From assembly GCA_016206675.1 (NCBI GenBank), contig JACQRD010000080.1, positions 1 through 40,261 on the forward strand: 40,261 nucleotides of DNA, written 5' to 3'. Both the position numbers and the translations under genes were made by a program. Shown piece by piece: positions 33,635 to 38,375 of the stretch. The notes under the pieces are model-generated. The model did not search any database and was not told the DNA's origin. It was given only the letters and a program-made list of their open reading frames with translations. Source of the stretch: Candidatus Omnitrophota bacterium. Its GTDB lineage: Bacteria > Omnitrophota > Gorgyraeia > Aquiviventales > Aquiviventaceae. Every line of letters begins with the position of its first letter. Position 1 is the first letter of the stretch.

Positions 33635-33767
33635 TCCAAATTCCAAATCCCAAATTCCAAATCCCAGATAAGCACCAAGCACCAAGCACCAAGCACCAAG
33701 CCGTTTGGAATTTGGCGCTTGGAATTTGGAATTTATTTGGAGCTTGGGATTTGGGATTTGGTGCTTG
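33635..33767. repeat. AT-rich ~133-bp nested heptamer-periodic palindromic element (TCCAAAT, AGCACCA and TTGGGAT words), between ctc and pth.
   Basis: (tccaaat/cccaaat)x4 at 33635-33666 and (agcacca)x4.4 at 33671-33701, then complementary ttggaat/ttgggat/ggtgctt words to 33767. Confidence 0.88.
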
Positions 33768-35518: not shown

Positions 35519-37087
35519 TTATCGCTTCGATCGCTTCCGCGCGACGGCCTTGCGCGCCGGCCGCGCCGCACGGCGCCTGGACTTCGACGCGGCGCGGACG
35601 GGGCGCTTCGGCTTGGCGGAAGGCCTGACGGCTTTGCGCTTGGACGGCTTCGCGGCAGGCTTCGCCGCCCGCGCCGATTTCAGCTTCATCTTGACCTTGA
35701 CCGCCCCTTCGCGCTTGGCGGGCGGCGCGCCGTCGGTTCTCGGCGCCCCGTTGGAGGCCAGCGCCCGCGTCCCTCGACTGCGCTCCCCGGCCCGACCTTC
35801 GCCAGCGCCGGGGCGGGCGGGACTCGGCCCGCCGTCCTGGCCGAGGGGCCTCGCGGGCACGCCGACGACGACCCCCTTGGCCGGCACATCGTGATCCCGC
35901 GTGACGACGCTGCCCGCCCCCGTGATGGCCCCCGGCCCGACCTTCACCGGCGCAATCAGCACGGTATCGGAGCCGATGAATGCCCCCTTGCCAATGTGGG
36001 TGGCGTGCTTCTCCTTGCCGTCATAGTTGGCGGTGATCGTGCCGGCGCCGATGTTCGCGCCCTCATCAATGGTCGCGTCGCCCAAGTACGAGACGTGGTT
36101 GATCCGCACGCGGGGCCCCACTTTCGTGCGGACTAGCTCAACGAAGTTGCCGATGCGCACCTCATCCGCCACGGCGACTCCGCGGCGCAGGCGCGCGAAG
36201 GGGCCGATCACGCAGCGCTTGCCGATCGACACGCCCGTTTCAATTACCGTGTACGGGCGGATCGTCGTGTCCGCGCCGATGGACACCCCGTAATCGATGA
36301 AGGTGGACTGCGGATCCTCGATCGTCACGCCGTTCTGCAGGTGCATGTCGACGATCCGCTGGCGGATGACGCCGGTCGCCCGGGCCAGCTCGCCGCGTGA
36401 ATTGATCCCGAGCGCCTCGGAAACCTCCTCCACCTTGGCGACGTGGATCTTCGCCCCCTCCTGCTTGGCGATGTGCGAGATGATCTGGGTGAGGTAGAGC
36501 TCCTTCTTGCTCGCGCTGGGGGTGACGGTGGCCAGGGCCGCCACCAGCGCCTGGGTGTTGCAGATGAGCGTGCCGACGTTCACTTCCCGGATGGCCCGCT
36601 GGGCGGCGTTGGCCTCAGCCTCCTCGATGATGCCGACGACCTTGCCGTTCTCATCCCGCGCGATGCGGCCGTAGCCGCTGGGGTCGGCCAAGTGCGCCGT
36701 CAGCAGGGTGCAGGTGGCCCCGGCCTTGAAATGGGTTTCAATCAGCTTTTGGACCGTCGTGCGGCGCAGCAGCGGCGTGTCTCCGTAGAGGATCAACACC
36801 TCGCCGGTGGGAGCGCCGAGTGCCTTTTTCGCCACCAACACCGCGTCGCCGGTGCCGGCGCGGTTGGGCTGCAGCACCACCTTCGTCTCCTTGGGCAGGT
36901 GTGGCTTGACCAGCTCCGCCCCCTTGCCGAGCACGACGATCGGCTGCTTGACGCCGGCGCCGGCCGCGAGATTGAGCGCGTACGAAATCATGGGGCGGCC
37001 GCAAATCGAGTGGAGCACCTTCGGCAGCTCGGACTTCATCCGCGTGCCTTCGCCCGCCGCCAAAATGATCGCGTGCACTGTTCTCAT
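35519..37087 (-). CDS. glmU: Bifunctional GlcNAc-1-P uridyltransferase / GlcN-1-P acetyltransferase GlmU, with a ~100-aa basic C-terminal extension
   Basis: ILAAGEGTRMKS nucleotidyltransferase motif and an LbH acetyltransferase domain. The tail (35522-35827) is Ala/Lys/Arg/Pro-rich (KSARAAKPAAKPSKRKAVRPSAKPKRPVRAASKSRRRAARPARKAVARKRSKR). Confidence 0.92.
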   Translation of the reverse strand: MRTVHAIILAAGEGTRMKSELPKVLHSICGRPMISYALNLAAGAGVKQPIVVLGKGAELVKPHLPKETKVVLQPNRAGTGDAVLVAKKALGAPTGEVLILYGDTPLLRRTTVQKLIETHFKAGATCTLLTAHLADPSGYGRIARDENGKVVGIIEEAEANAAQRAIREVNVGTLICNTQALVAALATVTPSASKKELYLTQIISHIAKQEGAKIHVAKVEEVSEALGINSRGELARATGVIRQRIVDMHLQNGVTIEDPQSTFIDYGVSIGADTTIRPYTVIETGVSIGKRCVIGPFARLRRGVAVADEVRIGNFVELVRTKVGPRVRINHVSYLGDATIDEGANIGAGTITANYDGKEKHATHIGKGAFIGSDTVLIAPVKVGPGAITGAGSVVTRDHDVPAKGVVVGVPARPLGQDGGPSPARPGAGEGRAGERSRGTRALASNGAPRTDGAPPAKREGAVKVKMKLKSARAAKPAAKPSKRKAVRPSAKPKRPVRAASKSRRRAARPARKAVARKRSKR

Positions 37088-37114
37088 GAGTGTCGCCTCG
37101 CGCGGTTACGATCC

Positions 37115-37933
37115 CTAGAGCGCATCATCACGATCACACGCTTGAACCGCCACATCTCCAATTGGATCGAACCCCGACTCCATCAGGAGAGCTGGGGAGC
37201 CAGGATTCGAACCTGGAGTCTTCTGATCCAAAGTCAGATGTGCTGCCATTGCACCACTCCCCAACGAGTTGCCGACCCCCATGATCCATCCGGCGATCCG
37301 ACGATTCAATGCGCTACTGCAAGCAACTCTGACTCGCACCAGGCCATGATACGCATCACCAACATTGGTCCTGCGAGTCGCGGGGCGGTGGCGCTTCCAT
37401 CGAACGTGCGCCAGTTTCTCAACGGGAACCTGTAGTTGCGTCGACCAAAAACTCCGAGCGCGTTGCGCATCACCCGTTTCATGGAGATACAGCTCGAAGC
37501 TCAGTTGCTCCTCTGAGACACCACAGATCTCTTGGGCCCATCTCATGAACAATTTGATAGCGAGGGGATCGGAGTTGGTGAAAATGACGCTTGCCGAAAC
37601 GTTTCCGGGCTTTTGCTTTGCCCCTTCAGCCCAGTAGAGCGCGAGTCCCAGCAACCAGAGGTCTCGCCGAGACAGTACGCCGATTTCTTGACTCGACGCT
37701 TCAAGAAGGGCCTGCGTTCGCGCGATGCGAGCTGCTTTGACGACCGCCGCCCCTTTTCGCTGCGCAATACGCTTCAACTCTGTCAGTCGTTGTGGTTGAG
37801 TTTCCACCAATCCTTCGGCCTTCAACCAACGCCATAACGTCGATTTGGCTACTCGGGACTGCCGGAGGATGGCCTCGTACGTCAACCCTTGACGCCGCAG
37901 ACGGAGAGCTCCATCGCGTTCAGATCGCTTCAT
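37115..37933 (-). CDS. HTH-domain protein with a LAGLIDADG-like (homing-endonuclease-like) core. The ORF has no stop of its own and reads through tRNA-Gln.
   Basis: The N-terminus has a resolvase/IS-type HTH (LTYEAILRQSRVAKSTLWRWLK). LLGLALYWAEGAK resembles a LAGLIDADG motif, followed by a VIFTNSDP...FMRW pattern. Codons from LGSGAMAAHLTLDQKTPGSNPGSP onward are the tRNA sequence itself. GC content is markedly lower than in the flanks. Confidence 0.5.
   Translation of the reverse strand: MKRSERDGALRLRRQGLTYEAILRQSRVAKSTLWRWLKAEGLVETQPQRLTELKRIAQRKGAAVVKAARIARTQALLEASSQEIGVLSRRDLWLLGLALYWAEGAKQKPGNVSASVIFTNSDPLAIKLFMRWAQEICGVSEEQLSFELYLHETGDAQRARSFWSTQLQVPVEKLAHVRWKRHRPATRRTNVGDAYHGLVRVRVACSSALNRRIAGWIMGVGNSLGSGAMAAHLTLDQKTPGSNPGSPALLMESGFDPIGDVAVQACDRDDAL
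37192..37263 (-). tRNA. tRNA-Gln (anticodon UUG)
   Basis: Hand-folded cloverleaf TGGGGAG-TG-GTGC..AGCAC-A-TCTGA-CTTTGGA-TCAGA-AGAC-TCCAGG-TTCGAAT-CCTGG-CTCCCCA-G. It has a 7-bp acceptor stem with the U1-A72 pair typical of bacterial tRNA-Gln, the GTTCGAATC T-loop, and no encoded CCA. Confidence 0.9.
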
Positions 37934-38375
37934 GCGCTGCGCTCAAAGAACTTGACACTCCCATCGTGGTTTTCGTGCGCTCGGCCTCGTAGACGTCCAA
38001 AATCTTCGCCTGCAGGTACTGGCGAAATTCCGCCGTGATCGGATGCGCGATATCGCGGTGCGCCGACGCCTCGCCGGCCTCCGCCTCCGGTGCTACCGCC
38101 GCGGGAGGCAGGCGGCTGCCGCACTGCACGCAGAACCGGCTGCCGACGTCGTTCTTAAACTGGCAGCGCCCGCACGCCACCTTCGTCTTGTGCGAGGGCA
38201 TCGCGACGAAGGGCCCGTGCCGCCCCTCGATCACCTTGATGTTGCGCACCACGAAGCAGTGATCGAACGTGACGGTGGCGTACGCCTTCAGCCGCTGCTC
38301 TCCCGGCCGCCGTTCACCCGCGCCCGTCCGTGCGACCGGCGCGCGCAGTGCGACCCGAACGTCGGTGACCTCCAT
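37920..38375 (-). CDS. spoVG: SpoVG-family protein with an inserted C4 zinc ribbon
   Basis: MEVTDVRV..LKAYATVTFDHCFVVRNIKVIEGRHGPFVAMPS...RDIAHPI matches SpoVG. ATG 38375 has GGAGGT 6 nt upstream. The CGRC-x10-CVQC insertion lies between the conserved blocks. Confidence 0.85.
   Translation of the reverse strand: MEVTDVRVALRAPVARTGAGERRPGEQRLKAYATVTFDHCFVVRNIKVIEGRHGPFVAMPSHKTKVACGRCQFKNDVGSRFCVQCGSRLPPAAVAPEAEAGEASAHRDIAHPITAEFRQYLQAKILDVYEAERTKTTMGVSSSLSAAHEAI

Follow-up and report, generated by a model that had tools for sequence, protein, structure and literature searches.

The window (the whole stretch of 40,261 nucleotides analysed here) contains a low-GC islet that is a real insertion. 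Its single open reading frame (ORF) belongs to a large, undescribed family of genes for DNA-binding proteins that lie flush with the 5' ends of tRNA genes and have their own version of the tRNA in tow. We propose that the islet is a free-standing, homing-type element that would target tRNA genes and carry an immune tRNA allele, and we put the probability of this reading at roughly 0.55. Probably, then, this is a selfish element of a new homing type, and not a LAGLIDADG enzyme.

A compositionally foreign ORF that reads through tRNA-Gln

The G+C content computed for three 100-nt intervals is 0.50 (37501-37600), 0.59 (37681-37780) and 0.69 (38101-38200), exactly reproducing the counts of 50, 59 and 69 per 100 from which the initial annotation had deduced a foreign islet of ~0.7 kb between spoVG and tRNA-Gln. 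The islet itself is borne out: the segment 37264-37975 has a G+C content of 0.569, below the mean for the window (0.655; z = -3.3), and it overlaps the 712-nt interval with the lowest GC anywhere in the 40 kb, which begins at 37141 and has a G+C of 0.562. At third codon positions, G+C is 0.60 in the ORF versus 0.89 in glmU.

The ORF comprises 272 codons (37933..37115, minus strand). As previously described, it has no stop codon of its own and stays open through the whole tRNA-Gln up to a TAG at 37115-37117, and its start overlaps the spoVG ORF (38375..37920) by 14 nt. The complete tRNA-Gln(UUG), predicted by ARAGORN and Rfam at 37263..37191/2 on the minus strand with 71 bits, is translated in frame as LGSGAMAAHLTLDQKTPGSNPGSP. 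Neither a promoter-like nor a terminator-like site was found between spoVG and glmU, and the 40-kb window holds no second copy of the ORF. The features of the locus are collected in Table 1.

Table 1. Features of the locus, with coordinates in the window
Feature	Coordinates	Strand	Evidence
Inserted low-GC segment, containing nearly all of the ORF body	37264..37976	-	Alignments with four empty sites; G+C 0.569 vs 0.655
Left edge of insert	Within ~45 nt of ORF ATG		Alignment with four empty sites
Right edge of insert	At, or inside, tRNA-Gln		Alignment with four empty sites
ORF body, 223 codons, conserved in family	37265..37933	-	91 homologues, alignments, dN/dS 0.05-0.18, AlphaFold pLDDT 90
Helix-turn-helix (HTH), transposase/resolvase type, residues 9-39	37817..37909	-	Pfam HTH_23, E = 1.3e-5
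Long single helix linking HTH to C-terminal domain, residues 47-84	37682..37795	-	DSSP on model
C-terminal alpha/beta domain, ~138 aa, residues 86-223	37265..37678	-	Domain model, pLDDT 92
tRNA-Gln(UUG), divergent ORF-linked allele, wholly within ORF	37192..37263	-	ARAGORN, Rfam, allele comparison
Read-through tail of ORF (tRNA and 74 nt of native spacer up to TAG)	37115..37264	-	ORF calls
3' end of spoVG (...TKTTMGVSSSLSAAHEAI*)	37920..37976	-	Overlaps ORF start by 14 nt
Native tRNA-glmU spacer	37088..37191	-	Alignable with spacer of empty-site relative L087
glmU, downstream neighbour, anchor of conserved synteny	35519..37087	-	
spoVG with zinc-ribbon insertion, upstream neighbour	37920..38375	-	Pfam SpoVG, E = 2.8e-25; Zn_Ribbon_1

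Occupied and empty sites

The islet is an insertion, as had been supposed, because close relatives with identical synteny do not have the segment. Eight such relatives (L086 to L089, L094, L106, L107 and L113), with the gene order tkt-ispE-(spoVG)-tRNA-Gln-glmU-prs, are free of it, and in these empty sites only 4-31 nt separate the tRNA from ispE or spoVG. The comparison covers six ORF-bearing and eight empty loci, which are phylogenetically related to one another; a ninth locus (L104) begins at the tRNA and stands outside this count. On a tree of GlmU, ORF-bearing and empty loci are interleaved, and the nearest relative of the window is L086, which is empty. Of 12 metagenome loci anchored on glmU, which were picked without regard to the ORF, two carry it. 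We also looked for the empty allele in the source population and found no clean joint across the ORF among the contigs of the groundwater runs; the joints that were listed are short cross-matches.

The DNA 5' of the ORF's ATG is unrelated from one ORF-bearing locus to the next, and the 3' end of the window's spoVG cannot be aligned with the end of spoVG in L086. No tRNA remnant was found 5' of the ORF in L127, L083 or L081, and no terminal repeats, target duplications or flanking repeats were found in the window. An insertion of the integrase type was rejected, since flanking tRNA fragments and terminal repeats were not found.

A recurrent layout against tRNA genes

We found 91 homologues of the window ORF. 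In 78 of 80 loci, drawn from Patescibacteria, Omnitrophota and Gemmatimonadota, the ORF is followed directly, on its own strand, by a tRNA-Gln(UUG) gene. The ORF's stop is a TAA at tRNA nucleotides 13-15 in 35 of these 78 loci and lies deeper in the tRNA or beyond it in 8 others, i.e., it is inside or past the tRNA in 43 loci in all. A complete same-strand tRNA is nested in the window ORF and in many homologues, and the tails past the tRNA vary among homologues in length and sequence. The read-through tail is probably non-functional as protein.

The absence of an own stop codon is a trait of the family, and not a local accident. This changes one part of the initial annotation, which had supposed that the insertion erased native stop signals at both boundaries. 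The supposition holds for the upstream gene, which has lost its stop and runs into the insert (spoVG in the window and, likewise, ispE in L001). It does not hold for the ORF itself, because members of the family normally abut the 5' end of the tRNA or overlap it.

The possibility that the stop was lost by a frameshift or an assembly error, or that the ORF is a chance IS fragment, has nothing in its favour except the ORF's unusual look. Against it, about 80 independent genomes and dozens of contigs from metagenomes show the same layout, with read-through into the tRNA in dozens of independent homologues. Moreover, the contig was recovered in four groundwater runs, its sequence is identical in several of them, and a search for terminal repeats or target duplications found none. 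A sequencing error or local accident is refuted by the fact that the layout recurs, and we assign it practically no chance.

More distant relatives adjoin other tRNAs. In L115, the ORF overlaps tRNA-Lys. Large viral contigs have the same architecture inside their tRNA arrays, and some of the ORFs there end 1-58 nt before tRNA-Cys or tRNA-His. No relatives were found in GenBank phages or PLSDB plasmids.

Domains of the encoded protein

The N-terminal HTH of IS/resolvase type that had been noticed by eye was confirmed by Pfam: the match to HTH_23 scores 25.2 bits, above the gathering cut-off of 24.6, and HTH_23 is found in 83 of 88 members. In the C-terminal domain, residues G96, Y100, E103, G104, K106 (the YWAEGxK motif), W163, G197 and W216 are invariant, and N120 and D122 nearly so. 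This domain had no match in Pfam, NCBIfam, PHROGs or PDB sequences. With Foldseek, the domain model reached a best TM of 0.39 against the PDB, and a search of viral structures returned a match to the HTH only. We recognised no known nuclease domain, fold or motif in searches of Pfam, NCBIfam, PHROGs and the PDB, so that any enzymatic activity is purely putative. A profile search with the C-terminal domain matched 4569 clusters. Some proteins carry two copies of it in tandem, and one such fusion is encoded in Actinomadura flavalba upstream of tRNA-Gln-glmU. These tandem fusions suggest that the domain may work as a dimer.

The ORF does contain the string LLGLALYWAEGAK, which the initial annotation had compared to a LAGLIDADG motif. 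However, the family assignment is not supported by Pfam, by profile-profile comparison or by two Foldseek searches of the PDB. To be a LAGLIDADG protein, the ORF product would have to be a highly diverged, single-motif homing endonuclease fused to an HTH. Some features agree with this idea. The sequence GLALYWAEG matches the small-x3-small, acid and Gly spacing at the end of the first helix, and the acid and Gly (E103 and G104) are invariant across the family alignment, although this trait is not specific to LAGLIDADG proteins. The domain is ~135 aa long and opens with helix-strand-strand-helix, and the tandem two-domain versions parallel the step from LAGLIDADG homodimer to monomer. Against this, no LAGLIDADG family in Pfam (PF00961, PF03161 or PF14528) matches the window protein at E <= 1, nor do any match the 4 viral members at that threshold, and none is among the 25 families most matched by the 88 members. 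The hhalign probability is 0.3% for I-CreI and 0.4% for a 34-sequence profile of the I-CreI family (PF00961). No LAGLIDADG structure is among the best 50 of 344 Foldseek PDB hits to the predicted domain model, and DSSP on this model places helices, not a hairpin, between strands 3 and 4. We consider a LAGLIDADG enzyme quite improbable.

The linked tRNA-Gln allele

Within the six ORF-bearing and eight empty loci, which are mutually related, the tRNA-Gln alleles of the empty sites are 94% identical among themselves, whereas the ORF-linked tRNA-Gln is 76% identical to the empty-site allele. ORF-linked and empty-site alleles differ at nucleotide 9, in the D and anticodon stems and in the variable loop, which has 5 nt in the window's allele. 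Two types of ORF-linked allele exist, one for each ORF subfamily. Because ORF-bearing loci have a divergent tRNA-Gln allele, the ORF and the tRNA, as read from these alignments, move together as a cassette. The linked alleles are 81-86% identical to ORF-linked tRNAs of Patescibacteria, in a best-of-78 comparison, versus 65-67% to the clade's own allele; as a hint of the allele's donor, this likeness is only suggestive.

Such an allele might also belong to a toxin-immunity pair that acts on RNA. The protein would then attack the resident tRNA-Gln transcript and the linked variant would be a resistant antidote, which would make the cassette addictive. Nucleases that target tRNAs are common in conflict systems, and it is precisely in the stems that the linked allele departs from the resident one, with its identity elements kept. 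However, the transposase-type HTH at the N-terminus points to DNA binding, no similarity to known tRNases was found, and a cassette that replaces the only syntenic tRNA-Gln leaves no target in the cell. We regard a toxin of this kind as very improbable.

Selection, decay and a possible host function

The ORF's dN/dS of 0.05-0.18 indicates purifying selection. In 77 of 80 loci the ORF has a lower G+C content than the flanking DNA, with a mean difference of 6 points, and decayed copies are present in L108, L079, L003 and P0080. Purifying selection over a long term would also fit a domesticated regulator. According to this alternative, an HTH protein of the host, bound to the DNA of the operon or of the tRNA-Gln gene, would regulate transcription or the amount of tRNA made. 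The gene would be inherited mostly vertically with frequent loss, and the conserved polar residues would be structural or contact DNA, rather than be catalytic. In addition to the strong selection, it is consistent with this view that the HTH is the only recognisable domain, that a nuclease fold was not found and that the link to one tRNA species is very stable across a huge phylogenetic range. If the gene is nearly universal in Patescibacteria, a host function becomes more likely. However, the gene is patchily present among close relatives whose tRNA and operon are intact, it is consistently AT-shifted relative to the host, and it comes with a different tRNA allele. Decayed copies occur, and relatives are located beside other tRNAs and inside viral tRNA arrays. 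It would also be odd, under normal constraints on expression, for an ORF to enter a tRNA. We think a host regulator unlikely.

Proposed homing mechanism

Returning to the homing-type element, we estimate at slightly better than even odds that the cassette consists of a gene for a putative dimeric DNA-binding protein (HTH, long helix and YWxEGxK domain) together with a cassette-specific tRNA allele. The protein would recognise, and probably cut, the DNA of the resident tRNA gene; the stems of a tRNA form inverted repeats by nature and, as such, would suit a dimer. Repair off the cassette-bearing copy would bring in the ORF plus the linked tRNA allele, which may be immune by virtue of its altered D and anticodon stems. 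The process would amount to intron-less homing, as in the T4 SegB tRNA cluster.

The ORF appears to have no promoter or terminator of its own, and would be read from the operon transcript and be coupled in translation to the upstream gene. In many Patescibacteria the stop codon is located at tRNA nucleotides 13-15, and in the window ORF it is 150 nt downstream; it is plausible that RNase P cleavage at tRNA position +1 severs the message ahead of it. Because this cut would precede the stop, tRNA maturation would make the mRNA a non-stop message and hold protein levels low.

A more far-reaching version strikes us as doubtful and is put forward tentatively. It holds that the C-terminal domain might define a nuclease superfamily with a new fold, comprising thousands of clusters in Patescibacteria, Omnitrophota, Actinomycetota and large viruses. 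Its members would be selfish tRNA-targeting cassettes whose own cleavage-immune allele replaces the host tRNA, and in which a non-stop mRNA made by RNase P limits the nuclease.

If the homing reading is true, the few homing-type nucleases would be joined by a new protein family, possibly with a new fold, and selfish alleles would overwrite essential tRNA genes in streamlined bacteria. It would also account for a recurrent oddity of annotation, namely HTH proteins with C-termini encoded by tRNAs. The locus would be a natural system for studying how translation competes with the maturation of a tRNA on a single transcript, and site-specific binders or cutters of DNA directed to tRNA genes are possible tools. 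Actinomadura flavalba, whose protein is WP_018653366.1, is a cultured carrier, which opens the way to experiments.

Comparison with known systems

Genomic islands that carry an integrase resemble the window element in that a tRNA gene sets the insertion point and in that the element supplies tRNA sequence such that a functional tRNA remains. They differ in that the window element has no integrase, consists of one ORF in ~0.7 kb and is inserted at the 5' side of the tRNA, whereas islands are at the 3' side; here, we found neither direct repeats at the flanks nor a displaced fragment of the tRNA. LAGLIDADG enzymes (homodimers of the I-CreI type and tandem monomers) share with the window protein a helix ending in small-x3-small-acid-Gly, a domain of ~135 aa, the existence of single-domain and tandem two-domain forms and, presumably, a selfish, site-specific lifestyle. 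Unlike them, the window protein has no profile, profile-profile or structural similarity to the family, its predicted strand order differs, and its ORF is outside any intron or intein.

In animal mitochondria, ORFs abut tRNAs without a spacer, and excision of the tRNAs sets the 3' ends of the mRNAs. In that tRNA punctuation, the stop codon is completed by polyadenylation, whereas the same cut in bacteria would yield a non-stop mRNA for tmRNA.

In the literature, we found only two analogues of such a family or arrangement: selB/selC and SegB. In Alphaproteobacteria, selB ORFs contain the gene for tRNA-Sec (selC) and run into the start of the next gene, and it was proposed that tRNA processing limits the full-length protein (PMC8124441). 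They resemble the window ORF in being bacterial protein-coding frames that stay open across an entire tRNA gene on the same strand. However, selB encodes a housekeeping factor together with its own tRNA partner, in contrast to the mobile, patchy gene and imported allele described here.

T4 SegB performs intron-less homing in a tRNA cluster, and its target includes a conserved tRNA motif (PMC2330249). Unlike the window protein, a putative nuclease with no fold match, SegB belongs to the GIY-YIG enzymes, and its cleavage is proven. Also unlike SegB, ORFs of the window type are fused to the tRNA's 5' end, often borrow their stop from the tRNA, are mostly chromosomal in bacteria and are associated with one tRNA species per subfamily. 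In other respects the systems are alike. SegB and the other free-standing homing genes of T-even phages are in or beside tRNA genes, and SegB is present or absent among close relatives and co-inherited with flanking tRNA markers. Two features by which homing genes are recognised were found in our family as well: the ORF-bearing allele differs in the neighbouring conserved tRNA (76% vs 94%), and there are signs of gain and decay along with foreign composition (four decayed copies; 77/80 loci).

An islet with a nested tRNA gene

On the minus strand, the window carries ispE, spoVG, a 272-codon ORF encoding an HTH protein, and glmU, in that order. The initial annotation held that this ORF overlaps spoVG by 14 nt and stays open through the entire tRNA-Gln; both points are confirmed, and its hand counts of GC (0.50, 0.59 and 0.69) were exact on recount. 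The islet has a GC of 0.569, below the 0.655 averaged over the window (z = -3.3), and the 712-nt stretch of minimum GC in the entire 40 kb (0.562, start 37141) overlaps it. At third codon positions, GC is 0.60 for the ORF and 0.89 for glmU. Since no promoter-like or terminator-like sites were found between spoVG and glmU, the ORF is presumably read from the operon transcript. Just 3' of the tRNA, an 18-nt stretch is 78% complementary to the D/anticodon arm; this may be chance, with 12 comparable pairs in 1.3 kb.

Positions of features in the window and in comparison loci (L numbers)
Feature	Sequence	Position	Strand	Remark
Low-GC segment	window	37264-37975
ORF	window	37933..37115	minus	stop TAG 37115-37117
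tRNA-Gln(UUG)	window	37263..37192	minus	wholly nested in ORF, in frame
18-nt complementarity	window	37151-37168, 37225-37242
Zinc-ribbon SpoVG	window	37920-38375	minus
Zinc-ribbon SpoVG	L086	3390-3845
GlmU C-terminal tail	window	35519-35830	minus	glmU 3' end
Heptad repeats	window	33635-33761		L25-pth spacer
Intact tRNA-Gln, remnant	L003	5768-5840, 6660-6790
Contig start at tRNA	L104	1-71
Tandem member	L114	3001-4448
Distant member, transposase, tRNAs	L115	1263-3807

Stop codons across the family

A protein search gave 91 homologues, the majority running from ...GWIxG directly into translated tRNA-Gln. A one-genome-per-species scan yielded at least 570 relatives. Their best 80 are mostly Patescibacteria, plus one Omnitrophota and one Gemmatimonadota (the taxon labels of several MAGs look unreliable). 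Among these best 80, tRNA-Gln(UUG) lies directly 3' of the ORF on the same strand at 78 loci. The stop is a TAA at tRNA nt 13-15, in the D loop, at 35 of the 78, so the last four ORF codons are tRNA nt 1-12; it lies deeper inside the tRNA or past it, as in the window, at 8, and 3-24 nt ahead of the tRNA at the other 35. It had been proposed that insertion locally removed a native stop. This is not borne out, as 43 of 78 loci stop inside or beyond the tRNA, and the absence of an own stop is a trait of the family. That the arrangement is an artefact seems exceedingly improbable.

The two exceptions among the 80 are rearranged or decayed. One (L079) has a GC-rich insert within the ORF C-terminus. 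The other (L003) has only a degenerate, T-arm-like remnant 3' of the ORF and an intact E. coli-type tRNA-Gln 160 nt upstream, as if the tRNA of the cassette (the ORF plus its linked tRNA allele) became redundant and then decayed.

Filled and empty sites

Relatives share the synteny tkt-ispE-(spoVG)-tRNA-Gln-glmU-prs-L25-pth-S6-ssb-S18-L9-dnaB. The ORF is present in L081/82, L083-85, L112, L127 and L108, and absent from L086-L089, L094, L106, L107 and L113, where the gap from ispE or spoVG to the tRNA is only 4-31 nt. By alignment, the insert extends from ~37976 to the tRNA 5' end, and the tRNA-glmU spacer is native. This comparison shows, as the initial annotation had proposed, that the low-GC segment is an insertion. 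Filled and empty loci interleave on the GlmU tree, and the window's closest relative on it (L086; 86% identity, GlmU core) is empty. A metagenome sample, independent of the ORF because it was anchored on the glmU start, yielded 12 usable loci: 2 with the ORF, 9 empty (3 being the contigs of L086, L088 and L089) and 1, L104, that starts exactly at tRNA-Gln nt 1. The latter could be an assembly break from filled/empty polymorphism at the ORF-tRNA junction.

DNA immediately 5' of the ATG is host-specific at every locus compared, and the upstream gene often overlaps the first few ORF codons (spoVG in the window, ispE in L001), so the element is essentially a bare ORF. In L083 and L127, stop and start codons overlap as ATGA.

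Several neighbouring features were also observed. Close relatives differ in whether spoVG lies between ispE and tRNA-Gln. The window's SpoVG contains a ~45-aa insertion, found also in L086 and L108, and Pfam identifies its CxxC...CxxC pattern as a zinc ribbon (Zn_Ribbon_1, E = 1.5e-4). GlmU ends in a Lys/Arg/Ala/Pro-rich, histone H1-like tail of ~100 aa, and related GlmU proteins differ in length in line with it. Heptad repeats in the L25-pth spacer, (CCAAATY)n, (CTTGGTG)x4.6 and (GGAWTTG)n, form a long inverted repeat.

The linked tRNA allele

We compared ORF presence with tRNA allele at 14 related loci. Empty-site tRNA-Gln in the window's clade is nearly one sequence (mean 94% identity), whereas all six ORF-bearing loci have a divergent tRNA-Gln, 76% identical to the empty-site allele (maximum 82%), of type A (window, L081, L083, L127) or type B (L108, L112). 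Changes affect nt 9, the D stem, each of the five base pairs in the anticodon stem, and the variable loop, and none falls in the acceptor stem, the anticodon loop or the T arm. The allele follows ORF presence and subfamily rather than the GlmU tree, so ORF and tRNA are acquired jointly. That linked alleles are closer to ORF-linked tRNAs of Patescibacteria than to the clade's own allele is only suggestive. The pairing could also represent an RNA-level toxin with its resistant tRNA, which we consider quite improbable.

ORF GC is below that of the flanks at 77 of the best 80 loci (of at least 570), by a mean of 6.2 points. Decayed copies exist: L108 is without residues ~19-87, and in the homologue P0080 the C-terminal domain is incomplete. 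Purifying selection acts on the intact copies (dN/dS 0.05-0.18). We count all three as signs of a selfish element; a host or domesticated regulator is an unlikely reading of the same ORF.

The protein and its wider family

An HTH plus a LAGLIDADG-like motif had been proposed for the protein, and only the former is confirmed. HTH_23 scores above the Pfam cut-off and is seen in 83 of 88 family members. In the predicted models, which are confident (pLDDT 90 at full length, 92 for the domain alone), the HTH is followed by a long helix that spans residues 47-84 and by a ~138-aa alpha/beta domain. Each test run of LAGLIDADG membership was negative. Pfam gave no such match for the window protein, among the 25 most-matched families of the 88 members or for the viral members; the HTH was the sole match in a PDB profile search; and the hhalign probability was 0.3% with I-CreI itself and 0.4% with a profile built from 34 members of its family. 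Foldseek with the predicted model had no LAGLIDADG structure among its top 50 matches, and OmpA-like and IspF folds gave the best TM among the matches listed, 0.39; this verdict on the fold is one on predicted models and matches listed. Because GLALYWAEG imitates LAGLIDADG spacing and tandem versions exist, we keep a very remote relationship in mind, although it is unsupported, and a very diverged LAGLIDADG enzyme is improbable. E103 and K106 are invariant and N120 and D122 nearly so, which would be compatible with a metal-dependent active site.

A profile of the C-terminal domain alone, searched against 1.84 billion representative proteins (E <= 1e-3), matched 4569 clusters, whose proteins combine the domain with one to three HTHs or are tandem [HTH-domain]x2. 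One tandem member, WP_018653366.1 of the cultured actinomycete Actinomadura flavalba (GCA_000374305.1), is encoded ~100 nt upstream of tRNA-Gln-glmU-prs. The ORF of a 29%-identical relative in L115 overlaps tRNA-Lys(CUU). Nine viral contigs (11-500 kb) encode 221-254-aa proteins of the same architecture, all within tRNA arrays and several 1-58 nt 5' of tRNA-Cys or tRNA-His; no relatives were found in GenBank phages or PLSDB plasmids. The family is large and tied to tRNA genes generally. The distant member in L115 also has a transposase of the IS110 family and a cluster of tRNA genes beside it.

A possible homing mechanism

Our favored reading, at slightly better than even odds (roughly 55%), is that the islet is a homing-type cassette aimed at the tRNA gene. 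The dimeric ORF protein would recognize the resident tRNA gene as DNA and probably cut it, a putative activity; repair off the cassette-bearing copy would then copy in the ORF with its linked allele, which would itself be immune. RNase P cleavage at tRNA +1 is predicted to leave a non-stop mRNA. The proposed homing has a parallel in T4 SegB within its tRNA cluster (PMC2330249), and the nearest known arrangement to a tRNA within an ORF is tRNA-Sec nested in selB (PMC8124441).
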